Counted from the stretch's first letter, positions 887 through 20,133 are shown. The stretch is 20,133 bases of DNA from a virus (IMGVR_UViG_2778261637_000004), one strand, 5' to 3'. Notes: generated by a model not told the origin, from the letters alone. Made by a program: numbers and translations.

Positions 887-1533
887 TTGTGAGTATCTCA
901 CGTTCTCACTGCGCTGGGCAAAAAAACATCGCAAAATCTGGAGCAGGCACGCAAAACAGAATTGAATGTTGCGGGGAGGAAAAATGCCGCTCTGTTTGAG
1001 TGGGCGGCATTTGTGAAGGCTGAAAAGGAAGAATTGGCGTTACGAGTTATTCTGTTGAATCTGTTTGTAGAGTATTGGCCTCAGTTCCGCATTGTAGCTG
1101 ATTTTTTTCTAATGCGTTTTTTGATTATGTACACCCTTATGTACACGTTTTTTTAAAGCGTTCAGCAATTACGCTGGTGGATGATCACGGATAACCTGAC
1201 ATCTACAGCCGCCTTAAAAAGCTGAACCCGACAAGCATTACTGCGTATCGGGTTCGTTCGCTCTTTCTACTCGTGGCAGATGAGTTTACGGTGTGATTTT
1301 ATCGGGCGAGGGTATTGTATCAGGCATCCCCTTTTCTATGCAGATTTGCATAGTTCCGAATGGTGGCGTTATGGAAGCCTCCCATATCAGCATCATGCCC
1401 ACCAGCGTGAAGTATTTTTTATTTCGCGGGTGTAAAAATTTGACGAGGCGGGCGGTCCCATAAGCAATGGGTTGTAGGGATTTCGATCCCCCCTCCTGAA
1501 TGCAATTTTTCGTATATATATATACAAAACAGT

Positions 1534-2351: not shown

Positions 2352-2379
2352 CGTTAAAAACAAGGCCGCGAAAGCGGCC
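2352..2379 (-). terminator. Rho-independent terminator closing the cargo operon
   Basis: GGCCGC-GAAA-GCGGCC hairpin (2364-2379) followed on the minus strand by TTGTTTTT, 10 nt after the stop of the 104-aa gene. Confidence 0.6.
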
Positions 2380-2388
2380 TGTGACATG

Positions 2389-2703
2389 TCACGATAGTTC
2401 CGTTTTGTTGAATTCAATTATATCAAGGTCAGAACTTTCGTAATCCTTACCGAATAAAGCAAAACATATCGCGTCAAGTTCTCTCTTATGTTTGGACGCC
2501 CGATCATAATTACCACCCCAACAGCAAATGAATCCACCAAGTACTGCTGATTCAAAAAGTAATGATGCTGCATCAATATGTCTGAACCAGGAGTCTATAA
2601 GTAAAGCAGAGAGTGATATTAATGTTCCCCACCCGCCAATCCTTCTCCATTTCTCAGCTTCATATTTAAGAGAAGCAATATATTCAATTTTATCTCTCGT
2701 CAT
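2389..2703 (-). CDS. Small predicted membrane protein (104 aa, two hydrophobic segments), AT-rich; last gene of the cargo operon
   Basis: Its ATG overlaps the stop of the upstream 925-aa gene (TGATG), indicating translational coupling. Hydrophobic stretches IGGWGTLISLSALLIDSWF and ASLLFESAVLGGFICCWGG. About 38% GC against a GC-rich neighbourhood. Confidence 0.6.
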   Translation of the reverse strand: MTRDKIEYIASLKYEAEKWRRIGGWGTLISLSALLIDSWFRHIDAASLLFESAVLGGFICCWGGNYDRASKHKRELDAICFALFGKDYESSDLDIIEFNKTELS

Positions 2704-5480
2704 CAGTTCCCCACCGCCTTTCCAAAATCCGGTGCTCTACGTGGCGCAATAGCACCCGGTTCCCACCAACTCGTTATGTCGAACTCCCGTTGCGCGCGGT
2801 CCCTTACTCGATCATTGTAACCAGGGTTTGCCATCTCCTGAAGTTGTTGCAATATCAGGTGATTGGTTATCGCTTTCGCATACCACAGGTTTGCGAATGG
2901 AGTGATCATGCGGGCTGTTTTCAGTGCATCGGCACCGAATGATGTTTCTTCACCCTGTAGAGCCTTCTGTGGGTTAGTAATCAGTAATTTTGTTAACTGC
3001 TCTGCAAAGCTCAACACAGGGCCACCCATAGTGGCACCGATGCTGGAGCCATATTGCGTATGGTCCTGGAAAATAAAATCACCGTAGATACCGAACGAAC
3101 CACCTTTCAGTAGAGCCTGAACCCATGTGGTTGGTTTTGTCATATCCAGCGGGTCATTACCATTTAACAAACTGTTCATCTGGATCGCAAACATACCAGC
3201 AAGAGTTGTTCCCCCGATATATGAGGCCAGAAATTTAATGGCCGGAACGGTGTCCAAATCCCGTGTTCTGTTAACAAGTTGCCGAAATCCAGCAAATGGG
3301 GTTGTTTTGAAGAGCATGAAGCTCTTCATTAACTCGCCAGCATCATCACGGGCATATGTATCAATACCCGTAGCGGTGGTCACAGCATTGGTCATCTCAC
3401 CGTGCGTAATTCCCAGCAATTTCTGGGCTGCTTCAGCGCGTGCATTACGAATCATGCGCGTGATGGTCTGCTCAGCCTCAGCGTCGAATGCTTCTTTCAT
3501 CCGTTTCAGGCGTTCTGGAGGGAGATCTCCAAGGGCTGCCAGTGCCTTTTCACTCCCGGCACGAATCCGGGCAATACGGTCTGCCATAATGTCGGCGATT
3601 ACGTTATCGGGCACAGCGTAAATCGCGTCTGGCGTCATCCCCATATGCCCGGCAGTAGTCATCGGCCTGAGTTCTGCCGCTGCCATGATGGCCCAGTCCT
3701 CATTGCTCCATCCCTTGTTAGCCAGAATGGTTTTATCGGTTCCTTTTATATCGTCCAGCGTCTTAAATTTTCTGGTCAGCTCGCCAATATTTTTGTACAT
3801 CAGGAGACCAAACGACGCTTTGTTTGCGCGGTCCATAGCGATCAGCCCGGACCACTTCAGTGTCTTCTCTGCGAACCAGCCAGTTATGCCGCGAGACAAG
3901 TCAAACCCGCCCATTTTCGAAACCACAGCAGCATGTGAATCCACCAGCAGACCGAGTTCAGCATTCGCCTTTTTGGCATCTCCACTAAACAGGTTTTTGA
4001 TAGTGTTAACGGAAAGCCGCATTCCACCACGGGTAAAGCCCAGCGCCTGCGCATTTGCCCGCATAATTGCCTGGTCGCTGGTTGCTGTCAGTACGCTGGT
4101 GCCAAGCATGGCGCTGGTCATCAGGTTACGCAGACCACCAACTGCTGAAGAGAACACACTCGATGAAGCGACACCATTTAGGCCAGCCATTGAGTTGAAC
4201 ATACGGGCAACTAATTTGGCCTCATCCTCCATTTCTTTTTTGCGTTTCCCGCCTGTTACTGCGCGCTTATAGATGCGATCCAGTACCAGGGAAAAGTTTC
4301 TTTCGGCGTCCGGACCAAAGGCTTTAACGACGCCCAAATCCCTGGATGATGATTGCAGGTGCGACATCATCACCCCCACCAGCGGCTGCTGAGTGTATCG
4401 CTCCATATAGGCGAAGTGTGACTGCGCATCCTTGAACGCCATCACCCTGTGCTGAGAACCACGGCTCTTTATTCCTCCGGCTCCCATAAATGTACCAGGC
4501 TCAATTTTGTTTGCCCCATCAGTGGCCTTCGTTTCAAAGATCGCTTCCAGTGCCTGACGGTACTCGACGTCATTCATAATGCTGCCGTCAGGATTAACGT
4601 AATTGCTGCGATCCTGCGTGTTGTAAGCGTCATCAACCCATTTCTGGCGGGCAAACTCAATCGGTGGCTGGCGACCTGAAAGACGTGCTGTAGCTTGCTC
4701 TGCCACTGGTAACGATGCCAGCCATTCTTCGCGCCCGGCATTGCGAATAAGGTCAGCATCATCCACATATGGCGTATGCCAGTCTTCTCGCAGGCCTATG
4801 TCAAAGCCGTTGTCGTTCATCTCATGACGAACACGGCCTGTTACATCCTTCCAAATCTGTGCAATTTTCTTCGCCAGGGGATTACCGGTATCTTCGCCAT
4901 AAATTTCTTTCAGGATCTGGAGTTGTGCAGACTTTGCCGCCTGCCTGTCGAATACACTCCGAAACCGCTGCTCTCCAAGCGCCCTGCTCTGCTCGAAGAA
5001 TTTGCGGACGTCATCACCTGCTTTTAGAAGTTCAGCACTGAGCTGACGGGACCAGTCCTGATATGCCCCAATTGCAAGCTCTTCAGCAGAAGTAACGGAG
5101 ATATCAGCTTTGTCTCTCGATCGTCGGCCAGCAAAAATAAACTGCTGCAAATTAACAGGTGTCTGCTGATCAGGCGGGATGTTAGCATCGAGAGTGTCAG
5201 TAATTTTACTGATGGCGATCGCATTCTGGGCAACACGCTGTCTTTTCTTGTACACATCATGAACCACACGCTGGCGTACCAGTTCTGCTGCATCCATGTA
5301 TGTTTGAGCATCAGGAATACCACTTTTGCCTTCTTTTGCATTCTTTCTGTGCACATGCTGCACAGCTTCTTTGATACGATCTTCAATATTTTTCAGCTCA
5401 TCAGCCTTTGGCTGGCGACCAAGTGTCTGCGCAATAGCTTCAACACATGCCTGTTTCATTATGGGTTCCTCAAGAAGCAC
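2703..5480 (-). CDS. Large hypothetical protein (~918-925 aa), Gly/Ala/Ser/Thr-rich with hydrophobic glycine-rich segments; cargo operon gene 3
   Basis: Long uninterrupted ORF. The track start is a GTG at 5480; the more likely start is the ATG at 5459 (MKQACVEAIAQ) preceded by GAGGAA. No Walker A or other recognisable catalytic motif. Segments such as GTSVLTATSDQAIMRANAQALGFTRGGM and GGTTLAGMFAIQMNSLLNG resemble phage structural or ejection-protein composition. Confidence 0.85.
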   Translation of the reverse strand: MLLEEPIMKQACVEAIAQTLGRQPKADELKNIEDRIKEAVQHVHRKNAKEGKSGIPDAQTYMDAAELVRQRVVHDVYKKRQRVAQNAIAISKITDTLDANIPPDQQTPVNLQQFIFAGRRSRDKADISVTSAEELAIGAYQDWSRQLSAELLKAGDDVRKFFEQSRALGEQRFRSVFDRQAAKSAQLQILKEIYGEDTGNPLAKKIAQIWKDVTGRVRHEMNDNGFDIGLREDWHTPYVDDADLIRNAGREEWLASLPVAEQATARLSGRQPPIEFARQKWVDDAYNTQDRSNYVNPDGSIMNDVEYRQALEAIFETKATDGANKIEPGTFMGAGGIKSRGSQHRVMAFKDAQSHFAYMERYTQQPLVGVMMSHLQSSSRDLGVVKAFGPDAERNFSLVLDRIYKRAVTGGKRKKEMEDEAKLVARMFNSMAGLNGVASSSVFSSAVGGLRNLMTSAMLGTSVLTATSDQAIMRANAQALGFTRGGMRLSVNTIKNLFSGDAKKANAELGLLVDSHAAVVSKMGGFDLSRGITGWFAEKTLKWSGLIAMDRANKASFGLLMYKNIGELTRKFKTLDDIKGTDKTILANKGWSNEDWAIMAAAELRPMTTAGHMGMTPDAIYAVPDNVIADIMADRIARIRAGSEKALAALGDLPPERLKRMKEAFDAEAEQTITRMIRNARAEAAQKLLGITHGEMTNAVTTATGIDTYARDDAGELMKSFMLFKTTPFAGFRQLVNRTRDLDTVPAIKFLASYIGGTTLAGMFAIQMNSLLNGNDPLDMTKPTTWVQALLKGGSFGIYGDFIFQDHTQYGSSIGATMGGPVLSFAEQLTKLLITNPQKALQGEETSFGADALKTARMITPFANLWYAKAITNHLILQQLQEMANPGYNDRVRDRAQREFDITSWWEPGAIAPRRAPDFGKAVGN

Positions 5481-5487
5481 GCTGCCG

Positions 5488-7512
5488 CTACAGAATAAAC
5501 CTTCGATTCGTTCTGGACTGTCTTAATCTGTTCATCCAACTCAGCCAGGAGATCAGAAAGTTTTGTCGGGTTTCCGGGTGAGCTATAGTCAGCTCAGGAT
5601 TGGCAACAGCCATGTCCCTGGCAGCCATAAGGTCATAGCTGTTGGATGAGAGAACCTGCCCTGTATCTGGATCAACGCTGACGTCCCCTCTGTGTTCACC
5701 AGCCGATGAGAAAGCACTTTCAGCACGAGGGACAGGCGATTCACTAATTGGCTCTGATGATGTTTCATATCTGACACCATTTTCTTCAAAAACCTTTTGT
5801 ATTTCATGGTATTGCTCTTGGTAAGTATCAGATGTATCTGATCGCAATGGACCATCAAGCCCTCGCGCCATCCCCCCAACATTTACAGGCTGACCATCAT
5901 TAAGTTGCCTGTATGCTTCATCCATGGCGTCAACATGGCTGTTGATGCTCTCATTGCTGGTGTGAAGCACTGGTGACGATTCAATATCGTAATGAAGCCC
6001 CTCATTCAAAATGTGGGCTGCATCAATATCGCTTGGTTTTATTCTTTCCCTCGCCCGGATACCAAAAACTTTTTCTACTGCGGCTTCCAGTTTCATATTG
6101 CGAAGACGCATACTTACGAGTAACCGTAACTGCTCAGGTGTAACGGTTCCAACCTGAATACCACTGTATCTGAATATATAGGCTTTAAAACCTGAAATAA
6201 TTTTTTCCCATGACGAAACGCTTGTCTTTAGAGATGGATTTACTGCATGTGCGGCAACTTCTTCAGCGTATAACCACTCAGGATATGTTTCAGGGTACTC
6301 ACCCCTTTTCTTATATTCATAATATTGTGACATCCCATATGCAAATTCAGGATAGTCAGAATGCTTGTTTGCAGATTTAAGTACAGCATTAGCTAGCTTT
6401 CTGGCCTTCCAGTCAGGGTAATGGCGCTGCTCAAGATGAAGCGCCTCATGATGAAGGGTTTCTAACAGTTCTTCATGGTCTTTTAATCCATTAATATTTA
6501 TTCTTATTATTGGTTCTTTTCCAGAAGCTACTGTCACATGACCTTTATTCAGAAGTATTTCTCCATCACTATTTTTTATTGCTGGTTCATTAATAAGTTC
6601 TATTACTCCTGAATCAGATAAATCACGAACCATTGACTCAATGTTACCATCAGGAGATTGCTGATAATGTTCACCAAAAGTTGATTTTATTTCTTCTGCA
6701 GAAATGTTCGACTCTGTACCATCATGGTTATTATGGGTAGTCAGGTGATGAACGCCACCAAAGACCCCGCCTAAAACGGCATCGACTAACATCGCCTGAC
6801 CGTCAAATACCCGGTACTGTTTTGCCATCTCCGTGTAGCCTTTTTCCTCCAGTGTTGCACCGACAGAGTAACGGTTCAGTCCACCGAATCCGGTGTTGAT
6901 TGCCACACCTGAGGCAATGCGCGTTGCCAGTGTGGTGCCGACGGCAGCGGGTAAGGCCATACCCACAGCATTGAAAAGGCTCTGCTGCGTTGCCAGGTTA
7001 CGCGCCGTAGCCTCATCTACTCCCTTCCCTTTAAAATCCTGATAGGACTGCTCATACGTAGAACCGAAGGCTGTAGCAGCGCCGATGAGTGGGCCGCCAA
7101 ACATAGTTGTTCCGATTGCAGGAACAAATTTACCAAGCTCATTTAATACCTCAGCCGCCATTCCCTGGCTGCCTGCATCAGGCTTCACATAGCTGCGGGC
7201 ATCCTGTAACTGTTTTCCGATCGTGTCGTATGTATCATTCAGTGTTTTGTCAGCATCAGGGAACATCTCCCGAAAAATATTAACAGTCGGTGCCACGTCT
7301 GCGGTAAATGCCGGATCGCTAATCAGGCGCTTGCTGAATCCGACGGCAGACTGCGCGAGACCGAGAGCCCCCTCCGCTACGCCGCTCAAAAGTGCAGTAC
7401 CTGAACCCTGGAAGGGAGTCGGATCGTAGTCTTCTGGCCTTGCTGGGTTGGCAACTGTTTTGTCGTCAATCCATGCCTGACCTTCTGGAGCCAAAGAAAA
7501 AACATCAGACAT
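5488..7512 (-). CDS. Large hypothetical protein (674 aa) with an embedded AT-rich segment carrying an HExxH(x4)H zincin-like motif; cargo operon gene 2
   Basis: Its ATG overlaps the stop of the 843-aa gene (TAATG). HEALHLEQRH occupies residues 355-364 (nt ~6421-6450). Roughly nt 6170-6760 are 27-35% GC, against about 55-60% in the flanking parts of the same gene. Confidence 0.85.
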   Translation of the reverse strand: MSDVFSLAPEGQAWIDDKTVANPARPEDYDPTPFQGSGTALLSGVAEGALGLAQSAVGFSKRLISDPAFTADVAPTVNIFREMFPDADKTLNDTYDTIGKQLQDARSYVKPDAGSQGMAAEVLNELGKFVPAIGTTMFGGPLIGAATAFGSTYEQSYQDFKGKGVDEATARNLATQQSLFNAVGMALPAAVGTTLATRIASGVAINTGFGGLNRYSVGATLEEKGYTEMAKQYRVFDGQAMLVDAVLGGVFGGVHHLTTHNNHDGTESNISAEEIKSTFGEHYQQSPDGNIESMVRDLSDSGVIELINEPAIKNSDGEILLNKGHVTVASGKEPIIRININGLKDHEELLETLHHEALHLEQRHYPDWKARKLANAVLKSANKHSDYPEFAYGMSQYYEYKKRGEYPETYPEWLYAEEVAAHAVNPSLKTSVSSWEKIISGFKAYIFRYSGIQVGTVTPEQLRLLVSMRLRNMKLEAAVEKVFGIRARERIKPSDIDAAHILNEGLHYDIESSPVLHTSNESINSHVDAMDEAYRQLNDGQPVNVGGMARGLDGPLRSDTSDTYQEQYHEIQKVFEENGVRYETSSEPISESPVPRAESAFSSAGEHRGDVSVDPDTGQVLSSNSYDLMAARDMAVANPELTIAHPETRQNFLISWLSWMNRLRQSRTNRRFIL

Positions 7513-10043
7513 TATTCAACCCTCACGACAATAGCTTTATTGGTTCTGGGATCTGTTGCCCAGCGTCCGCTACCATTTACAAGCCGATACCGGTTATTGC
7601 CGATATTAACTGGCGTGAAATTTGACACTGCATTTACGTTAAGTCCGGCATCTTTCAGTGCTTGTTTCGCAGATGTGGTATAGCGATCTTTGAAAGTAGA
7701 TTTATCCATGCCGAAAGGCATTACAACGTCGCCGCCATTAAAACCATTGTATATACCGCCAGTAGCATACTTCACGGCATCAGCTACAATGTCTGTATCA
7801 GGCATACTGGTTCTTACCGTAGATGCATCACCAGATTGATAAGCTATTCCTGCATAAGCGGCTTTGAAAAGGCTATAACTGATCTGGCGTAACTGCGGGT
7901 TACGGGCAAATGCATTACCTACCTGTTCGTCGAAAGCGTCTTTCATCTTATCTTCGCTCGGCAACTGTACCGGAGTTATGCCCGCATTCTTCATGGCCTT
8001 CGTCGGATTCAGTAGTTGGTCGCCGGAAAGAATAACCTTTGCAACGTCGTACTTGTTCATCGTCGGCTTATACCCGATGAACTGACTATATGGGATCGTC
8101 GGCTTGGTGTTGTCGTACTGGTTATCCGGCGTGCCCAGCAGCAGCGCAGAATAGGCTGTTGCCGCACTGTTCGGAGCAATTACAGATGCCACCTGCCGTA
8201 TTGCTGGCGCAGGCAGCTTCTCCCCCATGCTCTGCAACAGTTTAATTGTCTGGTCAACGTTCTGAGTGCCGCGCACCTGCTGTGCCAGCGCAGCCGCCTC
8301 TTCACTGTTGAGGATTGGGGCATTAATTCCCAACGCGCGTAAGCTTTCCTGCGACGAGAAACGGTTAGCCACCTCGGCAGTGATGTCGTCAGGGTTGTTG
8401 CTGGTGATCGGCTTATAGGCTCCGATTTCCACCGCTGCACTAAACGGATTATTCTGCCTCTGGGTTATTACCTTCGTGGCTGCCGCCGATACCCGGTCGA
8501 ATAACTCCGCACGAGACGCATACCCCTCCCCTGTTTCACCAGTATCCGGGCGCAATTGCTCAACATATGCGGTAATGCTGCTTGTCGGCATGTTGCGGAA
8601 AGAGCCTATATACTGTCCGGCGATCTGCAAATTTCTGAACTCGATATATCGCAGGTTTCCTTCTCTGACACCATAAGCTGCAATGAACTCATCCTCACCA
8701 GGTGGGTTAGGAAATTCAACGCCACGCATAAACGCAGCCGTTGCATCGCGAACCCTGCTATCGAGCATCGTTCTATATTCAGCCTGCTGCTGTCTGGCTA
8801 ATGCATCCGTCTGTCGCAACACGCTGGCCTGATCTGATTCACTTAAAGCATCGAACCAGGCTACACCGGTATAACGTTTATTTTTTGTCGGTAGCTGAGA
8901 AAGCCCCAGTGCGGCACTAACGCCAGCGGCCAATTGCTGATCACTGTACGGCTGACTGCCTTGCTCATGATGAATAATTGCTTTGCACAGAGATTTCAGT
9001 GTGTCAGGATTTGATGCGTCAAGCGGCTGGTCAGGAGTTACACCGAGCTGAGCACATACTGCCCGTATATAAGCATCAGTTTTATTATCATCACTGGCCG
9101 GTGCCCAGCGATTAATTATTTCGCTGATGGTGTCATAACCCTGACGCTGATACGACAGCAAATTGCGACCAAGCGCGCGAATACCGTGTTCAGGGGTTTC
9201 GAATTTGGCAAAGCGACCATCATCACCAGTCTGCCCAACCCACGGATTAGTTTTGCTGTATTCAAGATTGCCGGGGTTATTGTTGCGTATACCGCGGGTA
9301 CGATCGGAAGAGCCACTATCTGCTACAGCACGGCGAGATCCAGCAGCAGTATCGCTTAACTCTCCGTTTTGCTGTCTTACCTGAAGATAGTTTGCTCCAA
9401 TAGCATTTTGAGCAGTTGCTTTTGCTGTTGCTTCTTTAAACTCGATTTTCTTGGCCTGGATTTGCTCGTCGCTCCAGCCATGCGCAATACCGTAATCCTC
9501 AATTTGCTGGAAAGTTTGCGTATTAGCCAATATGTATGCTGCGTTGTTGCCATATAATGCTGAGGCATTTTTACCATTATTCAGCAGTGTCGCCTGAAAC
9601 TGGCCTTCTTCGTAGGCATTTATTTGCCCTATCTCGTACCTCCCGGCCTGCGTAGCGAACTGAATACGCTGCTGCTGCGCCTGCTGCATGAAAGCATTAC
9701 GAGCCTGTTCATCCGGCAGCGACATAGCCAGTTGTTCGACCTGAGCATCAAACTGCTGTGTATACTCATGGCCTTTTCCAATAGCATTTTTCCCTTTCAG
9801 ATTAAGCAATCCTGTTTCAGGATTATTCAGCAGATCACTGCCTGTCTGACTGAGTTTAAGGGATGCCTCCTGAACCAAGGCAATATTGGCGCGCTGTTTT
9901 GCCTGACCAAGAACATCAATTGCCTCTGTCCCTGCCCGAACAAAAGCATCACCAATACCTGGCTGAGAAAACGTCTGCAAGCCTGCTGACTGAACTCCAC
10001 GGCTCTCAACCTGACGTCCGGATACTGTTGGTACGACTGGCAT
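7512..10043 (-). CDS. Large hypothetical protein (843 aa), Gln/Ala-rich N-terminal region and a conserved-looking GIRNNNPGNLEYS...RWAP block; cargo operon gene 1
   Basis: Long ORF with ATG at 10043 and an AGGGGG Shine-Dalgarno upstream. The block at residues 251-315 (nt ~9099-9293) looks like a conserved domain core. GKNAIGKG is not a canonical Walker A. Confidence 0.85.
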   Translation of the reverse strand: MPVVPTVSGRQVESRGVQSAGLQTFSQPGIGDAFVRAGTEAIDVLGQAKQRANIALVQEASLKLSQTGSDLLNNPETGLLNLKGKNAIGKGHEYTQQFDAQVEQLAMSLPDEQARNAFMQQAQQQRIQFATQAGRYEIGQINAYEEGQFQATLLNNGKNASALYGNNAAYILANTQTFQQIEDYGIAHGWSDEQIQAKKIEFKEATAKATAQNAIGANYLQVRQQNGELSDTAAGSRRAVADSGSSDRTRGIRNNNPGNLEYSKTNPWVGQTGDDGRFAKFETPEHGIRALGRNLLSYQRQGYDTISEIINRWAPASDDNKTDAYIRAVCAQLGVTPDQPLDASNPDTLKSLCKAIIHHEQGSQPYSDQQLAAGVSAALGLSQLPTKNKRYTGVAWFDALSESDQASVLRQTDALARQQQAEYRTMLDSRVRDATAAFMRGVEFPNPPGEDEFIAAYGVREGNLRYIEFRNLQIAGQYIGSFRNMPTSSITAYVEQLRPDTGETGEGYASRAELFDRVSAAATKVITQRQNNPFSAAVEIGAYKPITSNNPDDITAEVANRFSSQESLRALGINAPILNSEEAAALAQQVRGTQNVDQTIKLLQSMGEKLPAPAIRQVASVIAPNSAATAYSALLLGTPDNQYDNTKPTIPYSQFIGYKPTMNKYDVAKVILSGDQLLNPTKAMKNAGITPVQLPSEDKMKDAFDEQVGNAFARNPQLRQISYSLFKAAYAGIAYQSGDASTVRTSMPDTDIVADAVKYATGGIYNGFNGGDVVMPFGMDKSTFKDRYTTSAKQALKDAGLNVNAVSNFTPVNIGNNRYRLVNGSGRWATDPRTNKAIVVRVE

Positions 10044-10139: not shown

Positions 10140-10346
10140 TTACTCACCCCCCGATGCAAAACCATTCTGATTAAGCCAGGCGTTTACGGCATGTCTGACA
10201 ATCTGCGCCACGCCTGGTAATGGCTGATCAGGGTGATTGTTCACATGGTCGATTCTGTACTGCTTAAGGCGCATCACGGTCTGTGCATCCAGATGAACGG
10301 AACCACCTCTGACATCGCCTGTGTTCAGGTCATTAATACAATTCAC
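10140..10346 (-). CDS. Small protein (68 aa), possible ribbon-helix-helix-type regulator heading the cargo operon
   Basis: GTG start at 10346 preceded by a strong AAGAGGAAA Shine-Dalgarno. The beta-strand/helix/helix pattern (SVHLDAQTVMRLKQYRIDH...VAQIVRHAVNAWL) is consistent with an RHH fold but is unverified. Confidence 0.55.
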   Translation of the reverse strand: MNCINDLNTGDVRGGSVHLDAQTVMRLKQYRIDHVNNHPDQPLPGVAQIVRHAVNAWLNQNGFASGGE

Positions 10347-10447: not shown

Positions 10448-10472
10448 CAAAAAAAGCCGGATTGCTCCGGCT
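10448..10472 (-). terminator. Strong Rho-independent terminator between the replication operon and the cargo operon
   Basis: On the minus strand: AGCCGGA-GCAA-TCCGGCT hairpin followed by seven T residues. Confidence 0.7.
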
Positions 10473-10478
10473 CTGTGC

Positions 10479-10712: not shown

Positions 10713-11129
10713 TTAGCCTCCGGCTCTTCCGTAGCGCTGTTCTGGTGGATTCACATAGCCCCTTTCTTGCAGGTATTCGCGAATATCAGACATCAGGAGA
10801 CGGTTAACCGTGCTCCTGTCTTTTCTCTGGTAAAGGCGTCTGGTGATCATGAAGTAGTTAGCAATGACCTCCGGTATATCCCTGACGCTGATACATGCTG
10901 TATGCTGGTCAATAGCTTCAATCATCTCTTCACGAGTTACAAAAGTCTGGCGTAAACGAGTGATCACACCATGTACATCTGAATGATCATTTATACGCTT
11001 ATTTTGGCGCTTCGCGCTCTCGACTGTGACACTGACAACAATGTCAACTCTTTGTTTCTCCGCCATTTCATCCACAATGTGATCACCTGCACGGCGACCA
11101 TGTGCGTGATCATTTCTTACTATTTCCAT
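10713..11129 (-). CDS. Hypothetical protein (138 aa), last large gene of the replication operon
   Basis: ORF with GGAGGAG upstream of the ATG at 11129; overlaps the end of the FinO/ProQ gene by 20 nt. No recognisable motif. Confidence 0.55.
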
Positions 11130-11607
11130 TCATCTCCTCCAGTAGTTTTCCTGCGTGCATCTGTTGTAGTGGTGTTACCTCGCCGCACGGCTGGCCTTTC
11201 AGGTCGTAACGCGCGCCACCAGCTACCAGGGCGCGGTAATAGCGCGGAGTCTGCACATAACGCGCCAGCGTTGCGCGTAGTGTTCCCTGTCCGAGTGAAA
11301 TACCTCTCGCGGCAATATCCTGTATCAGGTCGTCAAATATCCCCACCTTAAGCGGCTTAGGTGATTCCGGGCTGAATAATTCAGGCCATAGCTCAATAAG
11401 ACGGTTAACGCGTCTGCGGTTTTTACGCTGCCGTTTGGTCATACGCCGCCGCGGTGTTTCTCCTGTGAGCTTCTGCTGTGTGTTCTGGTTATCTGGCATC
11501 ACTTTATGCGCCGATGTGGTTTTATTCTGCTGCTGAGCCGCCTGTGCTGTTTTCTGCGGCGTGCCGTAAATGCCCTTCGGTTTTCTGTTTATGGTCAGCT
11601 TTGTCAT
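11110..11607 (-). CDS. FinO/ProQ-family RNA-binding protein
   Basis: Basic N-terminal region ([14 protein letters not shown]) followed by [30 protein letters not shown]...[39 protein letters not shown], matching the ProQ/FinO domain signature (PLKIGI..DL...RY...R.DL.G.PCGE). Confidence 0.75.
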
Positions 11608-11643: not shown

Positions 11644-12069
11644 TTAAAACGGTATCCCGTCCCCGTACGGATCATCGTGCTGGCCTGTCTGTTGCTGTGC
11701 CCTGTTCAGTGCATCAGTAGCCTGCCCCTGCTGGCCTTTTTTGCCGCCCGGTCGCGCCGTTCGCGCACTGATTACGCTGTCTGCGATAACCTGCCATCCC
11801 TGCCTCGTTTCGCCGTTCTGGCCCGTCCACCGGCTCACCTGCATGTTACCGGCCACGCTCACCAGTTCGCCTTTGTGGTGTTTTGCCAGTGCGTCAGCCT
11901 GTCTGCCAAACGCCAGGACGGATAACCACATCGTCGCCGTTCCGTCATCTGCCTGATTGCATGGAAGAGGGACCGCCATACTCGCCATCGCCATTTGTGT
12001 GCCCTTGCTGGTGGTCTTTAACTGCGGGTCAGCCACCAGCCGCCCGTAAGCTGATATTTGCGCCGTCAT
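11644..12069 (-). CDS. ssb: Single-stranded DNA-binding protein (SSB family, mobile-element type)
   Basis: 141 aa; OB-fold-like N-terminus, a Gly/Gln-rich linker and a C-terminal acidic tip ending DDPYGDGIPF (canonical SSB ends DDDIPF). Confidence 0.8.
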   Translation of the reverse strand: MTAQISAYGRLVADPQLKTTSKGTQMAMASMAVPLPCNQADDGTATMWLSVLAFGRQADALAKHHKGELVSVAGNMQVSRWTGQNGETRQGWQVIADSVISARTARPGGKKGQQGQATDALNRAQQQTGQHDDPYGDGIPF

Positions 12070-12279: not shown

Positions 12280-14406
12280 TTAATCTTCTGCTTCAGGCTG
12301 GAACATCAGCACGTAAAAAATATGCTGCTTCCCGCCAATCCTGCCGAGCGCCTTTTTCTTGTAACGGCGGTCGCCTCCCGCTTCCAGCATTCCGGCAGCA
12401 CTCAACGCGCGGGCAAAGTGAGACGGATTAAATCCCTGTGCGATCTCCCCCTCAAACACATGCGGAAACGTGTAAAAACGGAACTCATCATCTTCATTTC
12501 TGATACTCCCCTTTCTGTATCCGGCAAGGTCTTTAATCGGTAAATCACGCTCATCGCTGTTTGGATAAGGAAGGTATCGACTGAACCCGAACGACGACAA
12601 AAACGCCTCAGCCTGTTCAACCATCTGTTTAAATTCCCTGTTGCCCGTGCCGAATTCCTTCACCCAGGCATTAAAGTTATGCTGAACTGCATCACGGCAC
12701 GCCTGAACATCCCAGCCTGTAACATGACCGGAAAGCACAAGCGCGGCCTCCAGTACGGCGAATCTTTCCCCCACGCGGTGAACCTGCTCGCCGTAGCTCT
12801 CCGGTATCAGGTTGCGCCACCGCTCGCGACATGCCCTTACCGCGTCCTTTGCCTCCTGCTGGTGGCCTGCCAGCCATTTAACCCACTCACGACCTGCCGC
12901 CCCGTGATTTTCTGTCCAGGCATCTTTTAACGCGTCTGCGTGCGCCTTTCCGGTGCTGTATTCGTGAAACTGCGAGGCCTTTTCCATCGGCACGTTAAGC
13001 AGACGGACAAGCTGCCCCGCTTTAATTTTTATCCCTTCCGTTTTGAGGAATGTTTCAACGTCCATTTCTCCGGTGCTGATTGCCACCGTGCGCCAGTGTT
13101 TTATCTCCCTGTTGCCGCCGTCCTTCGCCCCCTGTAATTTCCCGGAACCGTTAAACAGCGTATAGGCTGACGTGGACACCTCCCGCGCGTTTCCGGCCTG
13201 GCCTATTTCATCCAGGGGTAACAGCCCGTCATTATGTGCTTCGGCCTCGTTGGCGATACCTAACGCCGTTCCGTACCAGGTCAGCCGTTGCGCGTCCGGC
13301 TCTCCCCATAAACTTGATGCAATGTTCTGTGTGGTGGTTTTACCTGCTGATGATTGCTCAAAAAGATGAACCCCGAAGCCGTCAGCACCCACCAGCCCGA
13401 TTAATGGTGCGGATAGCGATACCGCCACACCCAGCATCATGGACGGATTACCACCAGCCAGCCGCGCCACGGTATCGCGCCAGCCCTCCGCTGTTCCCGC
13501 CACGGAATAGCCATTAACTGCGGCAGTTTTTCCGGTAAACAGGATGGGTTTCTCTGATTCACCAATGACCGAACCATCCGGCATGATGTACGCACCAAAA
13601 TGCCAGCCCGTTGTAGTGCTTAGCTGCCATTCCTCATGACTTCCGCTTAACTGCATCCAGTCAGCCAGGATGGCTCTGTATTTGCCGTTGGTCGTCACGT
13701 TAAGACCGTGGTCTTTCAGCAACCGCCAGCCGTCACGGTCACCAATGCCTCCGCACGGGACCGCCATTGTAATGACCTCATGGTTTGCTGGTTTTTTCCA
13801 GCGCATCACGCGGTAATGCTCTTTGCCGATTGTTCCTGTTCCCAGTAGTTCAAGCGGAGAACATAACCACGTCTCAGGCCGGATAATTTCGCCTGACTGC
13901 TTGTCCACTTTGGGCGTTACCCAGAAAACACCATCGACGCGACTTTCAACACGAGGCTTTAATTCGTCATCATAATTTCCGGTGAAATTTGTCTTTGCCG
14001 GAAGGTTGATCACCAGACTGTTACCGCGTTCCGCATCATCCTTCAGTCCAGCCATGCGCGGTGTCCAGTCCTCCGGCTGCTGGTCAACAAAGCTGCGGTA
14101 GCAACGCGCCTCCTTCACACCCGCCACTGCAAGCAGTGTCGCTATCTGTGTAAGGTGCTGCTCTGATATTTCACCAGCACGATAAACGCGCACGTAATAG
14201 CGCCCTTTGTCGATGATTTGCGTGTCTGCCAGACTCGCCAGTTGTTCCGGTCCAAGAATAACTGGATGTGTATCATCTGCCGCAATATGCTTTCCGGCCC
14301 ATTCGCTCCACTCTTTCGCATGTGCCCAGGCATCACTACCCGCAAAGATAATCACCTCCGTCATTTTGTCTTTCGGCTGGTGCTTTAAATTCGGTGCGCG
14401 TTTCAT
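12280..14406 (-). CDS. Replication initiator: primase/helicase-type protein with a P-loop NTPase domain
   Basis: 708 aa. Walker A-like LFEQSSAGKTTTQ and an acidic LLPLDEIG stretch (Walker B-like). ATGA start/stop overlap with the upstream 100-aa gene. Sits beside the iterons and ssb, as in P4-alpha-like and PICI replicons. Confidence 0.8.
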   Translation of the reverse strand: MKRAPNLKHQPKDKMTEVIIFAGSDAWAHAKEWSEWAGKHIAADDTHPVILGPEQLASLADTQIIDKGRYYVRVYRAGEISEQHLTQIATLLAVAGVKEARCYRSFVDQQPEDWTPRMAGLKDDAERGNSLVINLPAKTNFTGNYDDELKPRVESRVDGVFWVTPKVDKQSGEIIRPETWLCSPLELLGTGTIGKEHYRVMRWKKPANHEVITMAVPCGGIGDRDGWRLLKDHGLNVTTNGKYRAILADWMQLSGSHEEWQLSTTTGWHFGAYIMPDGSVIGESEKPILFTGKTAAVNGYSVAGTAEGWRDTVARLAGGNPSMMLGVAVSLSAPLIGLVGADGFGVHLFEQSSAGKTTTQNIASSLWGEPDAQRLTWYGTALGIANEAEAHNDGLLPLDEIGQAGNAREVSTSAYTLFNGSGKLQGAKDGGNREIKHWRTVAISTGEMDVETFLKTEGIKIKAGQLVRLLNVPMEKASQFHEYSTGKAHADALKDAWTENHGAAGREWVKWLAGHQQEAKDAVRACRERWRNLIPESYGEQVHRVGERFAVLEAALVLSGHVTGWDVQACRDAVQHNFNAWVKEFGTGNREFKQMVEQAEAFLSSFGFSRYLPYPNSDERDLPIKDLAGYRKGSIRNEDDEFRFYTFPHVFEGEIAQGFNPSHFARALSAAGMLEAGGDRRYKKKALGRIGGKQHIFYVLMFQPEAED

Positions 14407-14705
14407 TTCTTGCCCCTGAATGCGTTAATCATGTTCTTTATTACCTGAATATTTGCCCGTGCTTTCTCTTTACTGGTGGGCTTACTGCGTGGTGCTGCAC
14501 ATACCAGTGAAAAATCACGCCGGAACTGATGAACGGGCATCACACAGTCATAGTCGTACCCTGCGCGGCGGTATGTAATGTGCCGTTCATACACGGAATT
14601 AATAACCACGATGTCGCCATATTTATCCCGGAAAATATCCCCGATCCTGATTTTCGGGTGAGTCTGTCCGCTGGCATTTAAGCCAGTAAATTTAATCTTC
14701 TTCAT
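14403..14705 (-). CDS. Hypothetical protein (100 aa), translationally coupled to the primase gene
   Basis: ATGA overlap with the primase start; 2-nt gap from the upstream 85-aa gene. Confidence 0.6.
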   Translation of the reverse strand: MKKIKFTGLNASGQTHPKIRIGDIFRDKYGDIVVINSVYERHITYRRAGYDYDCVMPVHQFRRDFSLVCAAPRSKPTSKEKARANIQVIKNMINAFRGKK

Positions 14706-14707: not shown

Positions 14708-14965
14708 TTATTTCCCGGTGTGGGGTTCTTCTTTATATTTATGGGCTAACAAATCTGGTAATTGCCTGTATTTATCCTCGGCAATATATTCAGAATAATC
14801 GACAGCACTGTTCAGTATATCTAACGCCGTTTCATGCTCCAGATTCGAAACTATAAGGAACGTTGCTACTTTTAGCATATTCGCGATATGCAAAAGAGCA
14901 TCAATTTCATTTTTTGGCGCTTCGCTGAATTTTTGCTCCAGAAGAATAAATCGTTCATCACGCAT
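14708..14965 (-). CDS. Hypothetical protein (85 aa)
   Basis: ATG at 14965 preceded by AGGAGGA; acidic, helical-looking sequence. Confidence 0.6.
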   Translation of the reverse strand: MRDERFILLEQKFSEAPKNEIDALLHIANMLKVATFLIVSNLEHETALDILNSAVDYSEYIAEDKYRQLPDLLAHKYKEEPHTGK

Positions 14966-15161
14966 AGTGTTCCTCCTGACGGATGCGGGCAGTAAATACC
15001 ATCACGCAGCCAGCCGGGGATTGCTGACGGGCTTCCTGTTCGCTGGTGGCCACGATGTGAATCACGCGCGGTTGTGCCGTACTCAGGGCGATAAAACGCC
15101 AGATGTATTTATTCAGGTTGTGCGAGTCCCGCCCTTGCGGGTGTGTGGTATGATTTCTCAT
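14958..15161 (-). CDS. Hypothetical small protein (67 aa), first gene of the leftward replication operon
   Basis: This is the C-terminal 67 codons of the 415-aa track ORF, starting at an ATG (15161) with GAGGT upstream; it overlaps the next gene by 8 nt. The rest of the 415-aa ORF conflicts with a well-supported plus-strand gene. Confidence 0.45.
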   Translation of the reverse strand: MRNHTTHPQGRDSHNLNKYIWRFIALSTAQPRVIHIVATSEQEARQQSPAGCVMVFTARIRQEEHYA

Positions 15162-15257
15162 AGCTACCTCGATACTTCTGCTATCGTTGGTGGTTAGAAG
15201 CCCGGTTAGTGTTAGCGCACTGCCGGGTTTCGTCGTTTCTGCACCTTGCATCAACAA

Positions 15258-15336
15258 GGTGTAAGTAACTTTATTTATAGGTGGCTTACATGTCAATGCT
15301 TTTATGTAAGACTTTTTATGTGTATATTGTCTTACA
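15258..15336. promoter_or_regulatory. Divergent promoter/operator region with nested inverted repeats
   Basis: GTGTAAG (15258-15264) pairs with CTTACAC (15330-15336), and CTTACAT (15284-15290) with ATGTAAG (15303-15309). TATATT -10-like element at 15322-15327. Lies between the leftward replication operon and the rightward RHH-like gene. Confidence 0.45.
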
Positions 15337-15357
15337 CTTTCGTTAAGAGGATTACAG

Positions 15358-15663
15358 ATGGCTACAGGTTCAAAAAACGCAAAATCACAATCGCTGACAG
15401 CTCGGATCCCGCATGATGTTATTGAAGGCATGGAATCCGTAAAACTGGACGGCGAAAGCAACGCCGGATTCATAGTAACCGCCATGCGTGGTGAGATCGC
15501 CCGCCGCCAGGCAGAAGGAAGCGGAGAAAATCCCCTCGTGTCTTCACTGGATGCCTTAGTTAAGGTCGAACAAATCGGCATCAAGGCAGCGGAGGAAATC
15601 GGGCAACTCGTAGCCGTCGCTCGTGAAGAACTCCAGCGCCGGGAGGCCAAAGAGCAGGAATAG
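15358..15663 (+). CDS. Small DNA-binding protein, ribbon-helix-helix-like (MobC/CopG-like); candidate island regulator
   Basis: ATG preceded by AAGAGGA. SLTARIPHDVIEGMESVKLDGESNAGFIVTAMRGEIARR is consistent with an RHH N-terminus followed by a helical C-terminal region. Confidence 0.6.
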   Translation: MATGSKNAKSQSLTARIPHDVIEGMESVKLDGESNAGFIVTAMRGEIARRQAEGSGENPLVSSLDALVKVEQIGIKAAEEIGQLVAVAREELQRREAKEQE

Positions 15664-15720
15664 CCACTATCAGCGCCATAGTTTGAGGAACGCAGGCGCA
15701 TTGCTTTACAGGGCAGCACC

Positions 15721-15900
15721 ATGAGCGACACAGAATCAACAAAAACACCATCACCAACTCGTAAGAGACGACGCAAAAATATAGCGCATGAACATGAATC
15801 AGAAAGATTCGCACCTTGTTCGTTTGCTCTTGAGAAATTCCTTAAAGAGCACAGGAAAAAGCTCTCGTTGCAAACCCTGGAACGAACCAAATCTGACTGA
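15721..15900 (+). CDS. Small basic protein (59 aa), not in the ORF track
   Basis: Hand translation gives MSDTESTKTPSPTRKRRRKNIAHEHESERFAPCSFALEKFLKEHRKKLSLQTLERTKSD. Followed by a plus-strand terminator; the ribosome-binding site is weak. Confidence 0.35.
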   Translation: MSDTESTKTPSPTRKRRRKNIAHEHESERFAPCSFALEKFLKEHRKKLSLQTLERTKSD

Positions 15901-15967
15901 TCACATTGCCCACCAGCTGCAAATCTGGCATTGTTGGCGATGCGTTTGATTTCCTTTGTTCCCACTG

Positions 15968-15995
15968 GCGACCTCTCCCGGTCGCCTTTGTTTTG
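15968..15995 (+). terminator. Rho-independent terminator for the rightward small operon
   Basis: GGCGACC-TCTCCC-GGTCGCC hairpin followed by TTTGTTTT. Confidence 0.6.
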
Positions 15996-16044
15996 CCAGT
16001 TATCCAGCAACGGGGCGCTTTTTCTTTCTGTAACGTTCGGATCG

Positions 16045-17496: not shown

Positions 17497-17703
17497 TCAG
17501 GCTGATGTGTTTCGGCGTTCTTCCAGCCAGCGATTAATCTCTACCGCATCAAACGCGGTAACATTACTGGTAAGTTTTATAGGCCGTGGTAACGTGCCAT
17601 TTTTCACCCAGCGATCGATTGTTGGCATAGAGACTCCCAGCAGTTCTGGCAAACGGTATCGGCGAATGTAGCCAGTAGTAGGAATGGTAGATTGTTCTGT
17701 CAT
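17497..17703 (-). CDS. alpA: AlpA-family transcriptional regulator / excisionase-like protein
   Basis: 68 aa with a winged-HTH core (YIRRYRLPELLGVSMPTIDRWVKNGTLPRPIKL); the usual integrase partner in P4-type and CP4-57-type islands. Confidence 0.8.
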   Translation of the reverse strand: MTEQSTIPTTGYIRRYRLPELLGVSMPTIDRWVKNGTLPRPIKLTSNVTAFDAVEINRWLEERRNTSA

Positions 17704-18771: not shown

Positions 18772-18864
18772 ATGCCACCTTTAAGCATTTCACCTTAAAA
18801 AATGAATGAGTCCAGCGGTAAGGTTTTCCGCTCTTCACCCCGTCGGGCTAGGCTCAATCTGTCC

Positions 18865-20133
18865 CTATGATAGCTTATGCATTTTCCTGATTGGCGTCAC
18901 GTTGTATTCTTCATTGCGTTCTAGCGCTACCAGCAGATCAGCCCACTGTGCCAGCGCAGCTTTACGCTCATCAAAATACTGATGGCGGTTATAAATCCCC
19001 TCCACACCCTTAATGCGATGATTGAGGCATCGTTCCGCTACGACAGGATCAACACCCAATGCTGCTAAATGAGTACGTGCGGTACGCCGGAAGTCGTGAA
19101 TCGTGAAATTAGGCACATCCGGCATTTCGGCGCGAACCTTAGCCAGTGCTACGGGTAAAGTGCTTTCCTGAATATGTGGGATCATTCTGTTTTGCATCTT
19201 CCTGGCTGGAAGCACCCATGCGCTATTACATGAAAAGGTGTGTAGCTCTCTCAACCATTCAACGGCAGGAGAAGGTAGAGGTATATCAATAGGGTCTCCG
19301 TTTTTGCTGCGTTCTTCCGGCAAATGCCATACCGCACCATCTAAATCAAACTCTTCCCATCGTGCGGCGCATAACTCCATCTTACGAACGCATAGTGCCA
19401 GCAATAGCTTAAATGTCAGTTCGTTCTGGCGGCTGAATCCTTTGGCTTTACGCATTGCCTGAAAAAATTGGATTAATTCGTCACGGTTCAGCCAGCGATC
19501 ACGAGATAATTCTTTCCCACCAGCATCTGATACTTCGAAAGCTGAGCAGGGATTTATCTCCAGAGCGTGGCGTTTTATCCCATAGTCAAAGATACGGCGT
19601 GTCCAGCGTAATACATCTGTTGCTATCGTTGGTGCTCCTCGGTCAACGATACCTTTCAACATGTCGTCAATGTGGCGTGGCTTAACGTCCTCTACCTTCA
19701 TATGCCCAATGCAGGGGTTAATATCCTTATCAATTCTCCGGCGAAGGATATCGGGATGTTTCCATCTCGGAAGTATCTGTCGCTCGAAGTATTCGGCGGC
19801 CAGATCTGAAACGCGCATGGCGTTTTTCTCAGCCTCCATTTTTGCCAGTGCTTCAGCTTTTCGTTCCTGTTTTTCTGCTGCTACGTCATAGCCAAGAGCA
19901 ACTCTGGCTGACAGCTCTTTTGCTGTTTCTCTGGCTTTTGATAGTGACAGTTCGGAGTAAGAGCCGATAACCATAGCCCGCTGTTTTCCTGCGAGCTTAT
20001 ATCGGAATCGCCAGAACGGGACTGTGTAGTTTTTGGGGTAGCAAATATAAAGGCCGTTGCCGTCTGCCTTGCCATCAAATCTGTCTCCCGCCTTTATCCA
20101 TGCGCGGATCTGCATATCTGTGAGTTTTGGCAT
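18865..20133 (-). CDS. Tyrosine recombinase, P4-type integrase with an N-terminal arm-binding (DUF4102-like) domain
   Basis: 422 aa. The N-terminus (LTDMQIRAWIK...DGNGLYICY...WRFRY) matches the P4-integrase arm domain. The C-terminus has HDFRRTARTHLAALG and a GIYNRHQY tyrosine region. The start codon is the final three bases of the window. Confidence 0.9.
   Translation of the reverse strand: MPKLTDMQIRAWIKAGDRFDGKADGNGLYICYPKNYTVPFWRFRYKLAGKQRAMVIGSYSELSLSKARETAKELSARVALGYDVAAEKQERKAEALAKMEAEKNAMRVSDLAAEYFERQILPRWKHPDILRRRIDKDINPCIGHMKVEDVKPRHIDDMLKGIVDRGAPTIATDVLRWTRRIFDYGIKRHALEINPCSAFEVSDAGGKELSRDRWLNRDELIQFFQAMRKAKGFSRQNELTFKLLLALCVRKMELCAARWEEFDLDGAVWHLPEERSKNGDPIDIPLPSPAVEWLRELHTFSCNSAWVLPARKMQNRMIPHIQESTLPVALAKVRAEMPDVPNFTIHDFRRTARTHLAALGVDPVVAERCLNHRIKGVEGIYNRHQYFDERKAALAQWADLLVALERNEEYNVTPIRKMHKLS

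Follow-up and report, generated by a model that had tools for sequence, protein, structure and literature searches.

An epsilon15-type ejection-protein gene resident on a probable PICI-like satellite island of Escherichia coli

Phage satellites are usually described as stealing the capsids, tails and packaging machinery of other phages, and some encode capsid-remodelling or packaging proteins. A described element of this kind is EcCIMP1, a 19,963-bp phage-inducible chromosomal island (PICI) of E. coli with 'no phage-like structural genes', which excises only in the presence of the temperate podovirus Kapi1 and is transduced by it; three hypothetical proteins encoded after its primase resemble Kapi1 'DNA transfer' and DUF2824 proteins, and Pick et al. 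proposed a packaging role for them (PMC11773190). Here we examine a gene on the minus strand of IMGVR_UViG_2778261637_000004, a stretch of 20,133 nucleotides listed as viral (the window, throughout), that encodes a 918-aa protein related to gp17 of Salmonella phage epsilon15. Taken as a whole, the best explanation, which we hold to be probable, is that the gene does not belong to a phage and resides instead on a PICI-like satellite island of about 19.1 kb.

For the phages, Hardies et al. placed epsilon15 gp17 in the family of T7 internal virion protein (IVP) D, or gp16, by comparison of hidden Markov models (HMM-HMM), with gp13 as IVP-A, gp14 as IVP-B (T7 gp14), and gp15 and gp16 as IVP-C-like (PMC4819975). 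The T7-like, phiKMV-like and epsilon15-like sets were joined stepwise by this matching, and the E=8e-19 of that study is the later match of the joined set to the phiRIO-1/F116 set; muralytic domains are hosted variably among the IVPs, and P22-type ejection proteins appear as an alternative solution that is swappable with T7-type IVPs (PMC4819975). Ejection proteins are stored soluble in the capsid and refold upon ejection (review PMC8954989). In P22, SieA sensitivity has been traced to gp16 and gp20, two of its ejection proteins, and hybrids that carry ejection proteins of foreign origin show partial resistance (PMC10461980).

We are highly confident that the gp17-like gene is an ortholog of epsilon15 gp17 and encodes a virion or ejection protein. 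Its product matches phrog_684 ('virion structural protein') in PHROGs at E=1.8e-295, with residues 1-916 aligned to profile positions 1-840 of 840, and a tblastn search of phage genomes gave 89.3% amino acid identity to epsilon15 gp17 (NP_848225) over residues 1-917. The same search found full-length homologs at 26-29% identity, among them those of phiV10-like coliphages and of phages of Yersinia, Pseudomonas and Klebsiella, as well as matches below 60% identity in phages of Vibrio, Pelagibacter, Liberibacter, Burkholderia and Acinetobacter, and an exhaustive profile search returned 6,244 related 50%-identity clusters at E<=1e-3. The presence of the family in virions is known by annotation only, the epsilon15 and phiV10 orthologs being annotated as 'virion structural protein'. 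The protein itself is thus ordinary: a close ortholog of a known virion protein, in a family without a solved structure. The gene and its neighbours, all within a cassette bounded by terminator-like hairpins, are as follows.

10453..10474, minus strand: terminator-like hairpin 5' of the cassette (9-bp stem, then a T run), parting it from the replication module.
10140..10346, minus strand: small open reading frame (ORF) of 68 aa, ribbon-helix-helix-like (RHH-like) by eye, directly 5' of the cassette; aligned with 5370-5549 of Pectobacterium locus L037 and 12666-12827 of the EcCIMP1 locus, L005.
7512..10043, minus strand: gp15-like gene, 843 aa, virion transglycosylase-type (phrog_992, E=1.4e-288; also endolysin and injection-transglycosylase PHROGs).
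5488..7512, minus strand: gp16-like gene, 674 aa, frameshifted at its 3' end in the window (phrog_1145, E=2.4e-118; tblastn segments).
2703..5459, minus strand: gp17-like gene, 918-aa internal virion (ejection) protein of the epsilon15 gp17 and, likely, extended T7 IVP-D family (phrog_684, 89.3% identity, dN/dS, AlphaFold2).
2389..2703, minus strand: 104-aa ORF overlapping the gp17 stop, with two hydrophobic stretches (maximum 19-residue Kyte-Doolittle mean, KD19, 1.64; WP_000196352.1, identical in E. coli loci L002 and L003).
2363..2380, minus strand: intrinsic-terminator-like hairpin closing the cassette operon (7-bp stem with 6 GC pairs, then a T run).

The operon thus runs from the small ORF through gp15, gp16 and gp17 to the small membrane protein, with gp17 as its last large gene. 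Gene order agrees with the assignment: the gp17-like gene follows a transglycosylase-type gp15 gene and a gp16 gene, with stop and start coupled where the alleles are intact, and complete prophages (E. coli, Klebsiella, Serratia and others) have this trio after gp12-gp13-gp14 (T7_gp14 family). The window gene shares with epsilon15 gp17 its length of 918 aa, 89% identity from end to end, the gp15 and gp16 neighbours, a gp16 stop that overlaps the gp17 start by one base, and the small membrane-protein gene and terminator that follow. The settings differ, however, in that epsilon15 gp17 lies on a 39.7-kb phage whereas the window gene lies on a 19-kb integrase/primase island in which gp13 and gp14 are not upstream, and the gp15 partner here is a phiV10/epsilon15 chimera while the centre of gp16 looks replaced. 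The ejection proteins of Pa223 (Bruynoghevirus) were considered as a comparison and set aside, the Pseudomonas gp17 homologs (MPK9, for example) having a gene order of the epsilon15 type.

A first description made from the DNA alone (the sequence-only reading) had noted no enzymatic signature and had proposed that, were the module ejection-like, this protein would be its envelope-spanning component. Both points agree with our results: gp17 has zero matches in Pfam, NCBIfam and PADLOC and thus belongs to no enzyme or defence family of these, PDB sequence searches with the single gp17 protein and with two profiles found nothing at E<0.1, and no significant match came from a PDB fold search; the ejection branch finds further agreement in the epsilon15 orthology, the published IVP-D assignment (PMC4819975), Foldseek matches to IVP-D proteins and the gp15 and gp16 neighbours. 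The other branch, a membrane effector of a defence system, is not supported, PADLOC being empty for gp15, gp16, gp17 and seven other island ORFs (E<=0.01). The satellite-like island around the gene had escaped that reading.

Within the wider family, a few giant fusions of 1,707-2,913 aa (P0060, P0069, P0082, P0118, P0179) carry the gp17-like region at the C terminus, and recall IVP-D fusions to enzymatic domains such as N4 gp50 and H66 gp60. In a prophage of the insect symbiont Candidatus Erwinia dacicola (L011, 10001-10260), the reading frame of the gp17 homolog stops after 85 aa while 96% tblastn identity continues downstream, and this homolog is probably a pseudogene.

The genomic setting identifies the window as E. 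coli chromosome. Its ORF at 1-837 is the chromosomal gene dinD, and in the best chromosomal match, NZ_CP146681 (98%), the interval between dinD and yicC is filled by the island. Borders were set by comparison with the empty dinD-yicC site of K-12 and by both junctions in L002, where the island measures 19,119 bp between the K-12 empty-site flanks and has the 3' end of yicC as its insertion site. The junctions fall at about 1047-1063 of the window and just beyond the integrase, with a degenerate repeat of the yicC 3' end on both sides. Outside the cassette, the island is made up of the following parts.

1047..1063, no strand: left island/chromosome junction with a degenerate copy of the attachment (att) core (TTATTC..TGAATCTG), from the K-12 empty site and the L002 junctions.
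11110-11607, minus strand: ProQ/FinO-domain RNA chaperone-like protein.
11644-12069, minus strand: single-stranded DNA-binding protein (SSB).
12280..14406, minus strand: DUF927 primase/helicase-type replication protein (PF06048, E=1.7e-46; phrog_1139, DNA primase).
14403-14705, minus strand: DUF4222 protein.
14958-16205, minus strand: 415-aa ORF whose last ~45 residues match an Icd-like cell-division-inhibitor domain.
16045-17419, minus strand: AntA and Bro-N proteins.
17497..17703, minus strand: AlpA-family regulator (PF05930, 27.3 bits against a cut-off of 21).
17815-18771, minus strand: 318-aa ORF.
18793..18858, minus strand: int-alpA RNA motif (Rfam RF02996, 42.5 bits against a gathering score of 35.8).
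18865..20133, minus strand: tyrosine integrase at the yicC-proximal island end (Arm-DNA-bind_3, Phage_int_M, Phage_integrase), with yicC just beyond it in L002.

An int-alpA RNA and an AlpA regulator near the integrase are hallmarks of PICI and P4-like islands, and the element combines this integrase/AlpA/int-alpA end with a DUF927 primase of its own in a discrete island that has att repeats. By annotation, capsid, portal, terminase, tail or tailspike, and lysis genes are absent from the island, and by tblastn the homologs of epsilon15 gp11-gp14 are absent from the window, so that the IVP-A and IVP-B proteins (gp13, gp14) are lacking. We therefore regard it as likely, with good confidence, that the element is a PICI-like satellite island.

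Some further features of the island may be recorded here. The genes for the ProQ/FinO protein and SSB sit between the primase and the ejection cassette. In L002 and L003 the Icd-like gene is short and separate and the sequence upstream of it is different, so this region varies between island copies. Near the dinD-proximal end, in a non-coding stretch of about 1 kb, positions 1502-1688 hold an iteron-like array in which ATAACCCGCAAA occurs three times in direct orientation at 21-bp spacing (1635-1688), with inverted copies opposite at 1533-1562 and an adjoining AT-rich palindrome at 1502-1535; the array might act as an origin of replication or bind a regulator.

EcCIMP1 resembles the island in both size (19,963 bp versus 19,119 bp here) and plan. 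The two share the order integrase, AlpA or helix-turn-helix regulator, AntA, Icd-like/DUF4222, DUF927 primase, small RHH-like ORF and ejection-protein cassette, with 62% identity between the primases and 74% between the AntA proteins. At the same relative position, the RefSeq EcCIMP1 locus encodes a DUF2824 protein, a 225-aa protein, a 'phage DNA ejection protein' and a 906-aa transglycosylase-domain protein; this cassette has no tblastn similarity to the gp15-gp16-gp17 trio and is P22-type by RefSeq product names only. EcCIMP1 also differs in its att site, a tRNA-Thr gene, and in its integrase, only 28% identical to that of the window, and its authors suggested a packaging role for these genes and did not describe them as an ejection module.

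Among species-representative genomes, most gp17 homologs lie within complete prophages, the exceptions being in two Pectobacterium species. There, islands without capsid or tail genes carry a Toprim/DUF927 primase, KilA-N, SSB, a small ORF and gp15-gp16-gp17, in that order, and their primase and SSB are 61% and 60% identical to the E. coli island proteins. The RHH-like small ORF precedes the cassette in four satellites (this island, EcCIMP1 and both Pectobacterium islands) despite two unrelated cassette types; the Pectobacterium and EcCIMP1 copies are clearly alike, and the window copy is more divergent. We read these elements as variants of what would be a single satellite backbone in which the ejection-protein cassette can be exchanged. 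Near the Pectobacterium carotovorum island, a few kb away and past a second integrase, lie a Thoeris-like pair (ThsB_TIR and ThsA_Macro; L037, 18645-20062) and a relaxase gene, which suggests a hotspot of mobile and defence elements.

In E. coli, the gene was found in 54 of the 5,426 complete genomes. The island type (at least 98.8% nucleotide identity) accounts for 37 of them and copies at 77-81% identity for the other 17, one of which was examined (L004) and proved to be an epsilon15-like prophage that is complete, having terminase, portal, capsid, tail, gp13 and gp14. The island also occupies a second E. coli site, next to tRNA-Gly/actS (L003), where its integrase is only 28% identical; two sites with different integrases indicate that the element is mobile. 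The island copies do not form a single clade in a gp17 tree; each clusters with phage copies of its own host range, which suggests repeated acquisition from local phages or continuing exchange with them. Prophages of the phiV10 type occur in 529 of the 5,426 genomes.

Phage homology of the cassette starts exactly at the gp15 ATG, and its parts are mosaic. Residues 1-200 of gp15 are 90-95% identical to phiV10 p18, a breakpoint falls near residue 500, and residues 500-843 are epsilon15-type (76-90% identity) and 20-42% identical to phiV10. The gp16-like protein resembles epsilon15 gp16 by tblastn over its N-terminal 281 aa and its C-terminal third, whereas the centre of its gene (window 6043-6742, ~700 nt) has no nucleotide similarity to epsilon15, the E. 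coli epsilon15-like prophage or phiV10 and looks like a replaced or inserted segment. After gp17, the 104-aa ORF occupies the position of the small two-transmembrane proteins epsilon15 gp18 and phiV10 p21, to which it is not similar in sequence, and the terminator region (2335-2393) is 96.6% identical to the phiV10 region downstream of that phage's gp17 homolog.

The sequence-only reading had reported an ORF of 925 codons at 2703-5480 on the minus strand, which is present, and had preferred an ATG at 5459 to the GTG at 5480; we likewise find the ATG to be the true start of gp17. GAGGAA stands 6 nt 5' of it, the product of 918 aa equals epsilon15 gp17 in length, RefSeq gene models give an identical 2757-nt gene in two E. 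coli genomes (L002 and L003), and M1 and C5 are near-invariant across an alignment of 75 family members. In the intact island alleles of L002 and L003, moreover, the stop of the upstream gp16-like gene overlaps the gp17 ATG in the sequence TAATG, an overlap also found in epsilon15, so that the GTG at 5480 falls within the upstream gene. In the window, 7 bp are missing relative to these alleles between 5578 and 5577, where a CCGGAAA tandem has lost one copy; this deletion shifts the frame of the gp16-like gene, altering its last ~38 codons and ending it early at 5488, and it is this early stop that makes the GTG look available. A different frame (5462-5575) still contains the epsilon15-like C-terminal 38 aa of gp16.

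The gene is under strong purifying selection and is not a chance ORF. Compared with epsilon15 and the E. coli prophage copy, gp17 has a ratio of non-synonymous to synonymous substitution rates (dN/dS) of 0.045 at a dS of about 1.4. Within the island lineage, two copies differ by 12 synonymous and 2 non-synonymous changes in gp17 (P ~3e-6 against a 1:3 neutral expectation) and by 39 synonymous and 22 non-synonymous changes in gp15. A full-length gp17 match is present in 37 E. coli genomes and is uninterrupted in 36.

With regard to fold, the sequence-only reading had singled out repeated glycine-rich hydrophobic segments and quoted three peptides, all of which we located (window 4074-4193, 3831-3911 and 3165-3218). 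Glycine is not enriched overall, making up 7.8% of gp17 residues, the grand average of hydropathy is -0.37 and the best KD19 is 1.34; on the other side, 23 of the 89 most conserved columns of the 75-sequence alignment are glycine, concentrated at residues 755-836 around the motif GGSFGIYGD. By virtue of these columns, the segments are conserved functional features, and neither chance nor classical transmembrane helices. The segments and motifs concerned are these.

4074..4193, minus strand: first quoted segment (SMAGLNGV...TATSD), helical and Ser/Ala/Gly-rich, holding conserved G426, R444, L452 and D462.
3279..3311, minus strand: FKTTPFAGFRQ motif, residues 717-727, with F717 and K718 near-invariant; aligned by hhalign with the QFKSF motif of T7-type gp16.
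3183..3239, minus strand: most hydrophobic gp17 helix, residues 741-759, IKFLASYIGGTTLAGMFAI, overlapping the third quoted segment (KD19 1.34).
3078..3104, minus strand: GGSFGIYGD motif, residues 786-794, the most conserved signature of the family in alignments of 20, 40 and 75 sequences, in all of which G786, G787, G790, G793 and D794 are invariant or nearly so.

A first AlphaFold2 model, built from 40 close sequences and used for the fold searches, was all-alpha with a mean pLDDT (the predicted local distance difference test) of 62, and its low confidence fell exactly on the hydrophobic segments. The second model, from the 75-sequence alignment (mb94ef9874728), is a compact all-alpha monomer with pLDDT 84.3 and a predicted template modelling score (pTM) of 0.85; the segment at 4074-4193 rose from pLDDT <50 with the shallow alignment to 62-87 with the deep one. 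The sequence-only reading had named a known enzymatic fold as what would tell against it, and the PDB fold search with the first model matched none; its suggestion that the segments insert into membranes fared less well, since their hydropathy is below the classical transmembrane score and the second model is confidently compact, leaving membrane insertion as an inference. A confidently predicted soluble monomer with buried hydrophobic helices fits the known behaviour of ejection proteins.

Compared by Foldseek with the predicted structures of BFVD, the first model matched gp17 family members. In T7- and phiKMV-like phages it also matched proteins named 'internal virion protein D' and internal core proteins, with E between 1.7e-5 and 7e-4, probabilities of 0.98-1.0 and low TM-scores. 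When the profile of 75 family members was compared by hhalign with one of eight T7-type gp16 proteins, taken from diverse phage records because a homolog search with T7 gp16 gave only proteins at least 94% identical, the result was a probability of 41% and E=2.9e-4 over 357 collinear columns, aligning gp17 327-757 to T7 gp16 758-1150; against the single T7 gp16 sequence the probability was 5%, which is uninformative. In the profile alignment the FKSF motifs coincide, and gp17 residues 741-759 (KD19 1.34) pair with T7 gp16 residues 1136-1154 (KD19 1.44), in each case the protein's most hydrophobic glycine-bearing helix. We rate membership of gp17 in the IVP-D family, and with it a distant relationship to the C-terminal half of T7 gp16, as likely; the profile and model comparisons lean this way but do not amount to proof.

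With T7 gp16 and PhiM1 gp48, the inner-membrane-proximal ejectosome component, gp17 shares the all-alpha fold, the collinear profile alignment and the position of last and largest gene of the operon; the phage orthologs indeed close an IVP operon, after tubular tail B and IVP-A/B. It differs in being ~400 residues shorter, in a similarity at the edge of detection, and in having no N-terminal lytic transglycosylase domain: Pfam finds no SLT match in gp17, and the transglycosylase-type PHROG matches sit in gp15. P22 gp7, gp20 and gp16 are functional analogues that are likewise capsid-internal, form a trans-envelope conduit and hold the syntenic position, but have no detectable sequence similarity to it.

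By analogy with what is established for T7 and P22, a few copies of gp17 would be packed in the capsid as a soluble all-alpha protein and expelled first at infection, by way of portal and tail, after which the ejected proteins would refold with their partners into a trans-envelope DNA conduit, with the IVP-D-type protein closest to the inner membrane. In the C-terminal third (residues ~700-870), it is the conserved hydrophobic helices rich in Gly/Ala/Ser that are likely to make contact with the membrane or within an oligomer. On induction of, or infection by, an epsilon15/phiV10-like (Uetakevirus) helper, island gp15-gp17 would be co-packaged into helper-built capsids, which would still require the helper's gp13 and gp14, portal and tail; the island trio would supply or replace the helper set, so that island-carrying particles inject the island, possibly with the benefit of escaping injection-blocking exclusion in lysogens. 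Whether the island-encoded proteins are used in satellite transfer in this way we judge to be evenly balanced. The island has 0.48-0.49 of the genome lengths of epsilon15 and phiV10 (39,672 and 39,104 bp), and it is a speculation that this half-genome size would allow packaging of a dimer by a headful helper. More tentatively still, and on balance doubtful to us, there may be a family of podovirus satellites with swappable cassettes after the RHH-like ORF, 3' of the DUF927 primase (P22-like by annotation in EcCIMP1, epsilon15-type here and in Pectobacterium), by which a satellite would pick its own injection conduit within a stolen capsid; the chimeric gp15 would then serve as an adaptor for phiV10-like helper capsids, presenting foreign gp16 and gp17, and superinfection exclusion would be bypassed much as P22 hybrids escape SieA.

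Several observations weigh against an island that uses these genes for its own delivery. No packaging-redirection gene (small terminase, Rpp/Ppi-like or capsid-size) was found by Pfam, PHROGs or NCBIfam, no helper pac- or cos-like sequence was recognised, and there is no DNA similarity to the epsilon15 terminase region. No sigma-70-like promoter was seen upstream of the cassette, whose expression is a prediction from sequence only, and the island's non-coding DNA has no promoter or pac/cos similarity to epsilon15 or phiV10 beyond the terminator. None of the 37 island-bearing E. coli genomes holds a prophage with an epsilon15-type gp17 (at one match per genome), and at least 5 of the 37, such as NZ_CM163382 and NZ_CP172217, hold a phiV10-like prophage whose gp17 homolog is only ~26% identical. 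The gp16 partner is frameshifted at its 3' end in the window, and an IS4-like element, ISVsa5, splits gp17 in one genome, E. coli TUM9803 (NZ_CP135671.1). For the protein, there is no classical transmembrane helix in gp17 (best 19-residue Kyte-Doolittle window 1.34, residues 741-759, against a threshold of 1.6), and the T7 gp16 link is statistically weak (hhalign probability 41%, TM-scores 0.2-0.35). Finally, it is for EcCIMP1 with Kapi1 that helper-dependent induction and transfer were shown by experiment; for the present island, induction, packaging and the presence of its proteins in virions are predictions.

Satellites commonly interfere with their helpers, which counts in favour of a different use of the cassette: island ejection proteins might poison or block the helper or related phages, either by entering helper virions as incompatible subunits or by occupying the inner-membrane sites of incoming ejectosomes, which would give superinfection exclusion. 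Island gp16 and gp17 are indeed only ~26-29% identical to their counterparts in the phiV10-like prophages that at least 5 island-bearing genomes hold, EcCIMP1 adds superinfection immunity (PMC11773190), and the injection step is a known battleground, SieA sensitivity being set by the type of ejection protein (PMC10461980). However, EcCIMP1 does not lower helper titres (PMC11773190), gp15, gp16, gp17 and the seven other island ORFs searched belong to no PADLOC family, and a full-length protein with 89% identity to its phage counterpart under strong purifying selection is what is expected of working ejection proteins; the position of the cassette between terminators with no recognisable constitutive promoter also fits late, helper-dependent expression better, so that we think interference or exclusion unlikely. 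An inert remnant, left by a decayed epsilon15-like prophage or acquired by recombination as hitch-hiking cargo, would account for the mosaic of phiV10-like and epsilon15-like segments, the gp16 frameshift in the window, the insertion sequence in gp17 of one genome, and the absence of gp13 and gp14, which a full ejectosome requires. Yet selection within the island lineage is purifying (12 synonymous versus 2 non-synonymous changes in gp17, 39 versus 22 in gp15), the cassette has a precise edge at the gp15 ATG and a terminator of its own at the other end, and the architecture recurs: two E. coli att sites hold it beside different integrases, two Pectobacterium species have it, and EcCIMP1 has it with a cassette that is not homologous, all of which makes mere residue very unlikely in our estimate.

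The remaining alternatives concern the protein more than the island. A genetic model by Guichard et al. (2013), cited in PMC12391199, has gp4, gp20, gp15 and gp17/16 make up a packaging/injection device. In epsilon15-like virions gp17 might accordingly form, with gp15, the tail's central tube or the hub of its adsorption apparatus; it would then plug and build a tube outside the capsid, and would not be an internal core protein that reaches the inner membrane. That citation, the remark that the epsilon15 transient-tube proteins 'are not clearly identified' (Hardies et al., PMC4819975) and a compact, confident monomer model without an obligate membrane segment speak for this location; the similarity of gp17 to IVP-D proteins and its synteny with the internal-protein operons of T7 and P22, directly after homologs of tubular tail B and IVP-A/B, speak against it, and we hold an external tube to be quite unlikely. 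This alternative bears on location in the virion only, gp17 as a DNA-delivery virion protein being undisputed. The sequence-only reading had also called the segments tape-measure-like, and a tape measure of a long-tailed phage or tailocin could be imagined from a long helical protein with Gly-rich hydrophobic stretches and weak Foldseek matches. Those matches have a probability of <=0.2 and stand at E>=0.05, the neighbourhood lacks genes for a tail tube, sheath or chaperone, and all close homologs lie in podovirus modules; this identity is extremely unlikely, being effectively refuted by context and homology.

What is noteworthy, then, is the residence of an ejection gene in a satellite, and not the protein. 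A satellite family that encodes a DNA-ejection apparatus has not been described as such, the EcCIMP1 equivalents having been read as possible packaging factors; EcCIMP1, the Pectobacterium islands and the island described here together suggest a family of satellites with an ejection apparatus of their own. The confident AlphaFold model offers a usable starting point for a family of 6,244 clusters without a solved structure. If the cassettes act as proposed, they would be natural 'mix-and-match' material for the study of how ejection proteins are recruited to the portal and cross the envelope, with consequences for host range, escape from superinfection exclusion and interference with helpers. 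If island gp15-gp17 load into helper capsids, satellites would control entry, and not only assembly.

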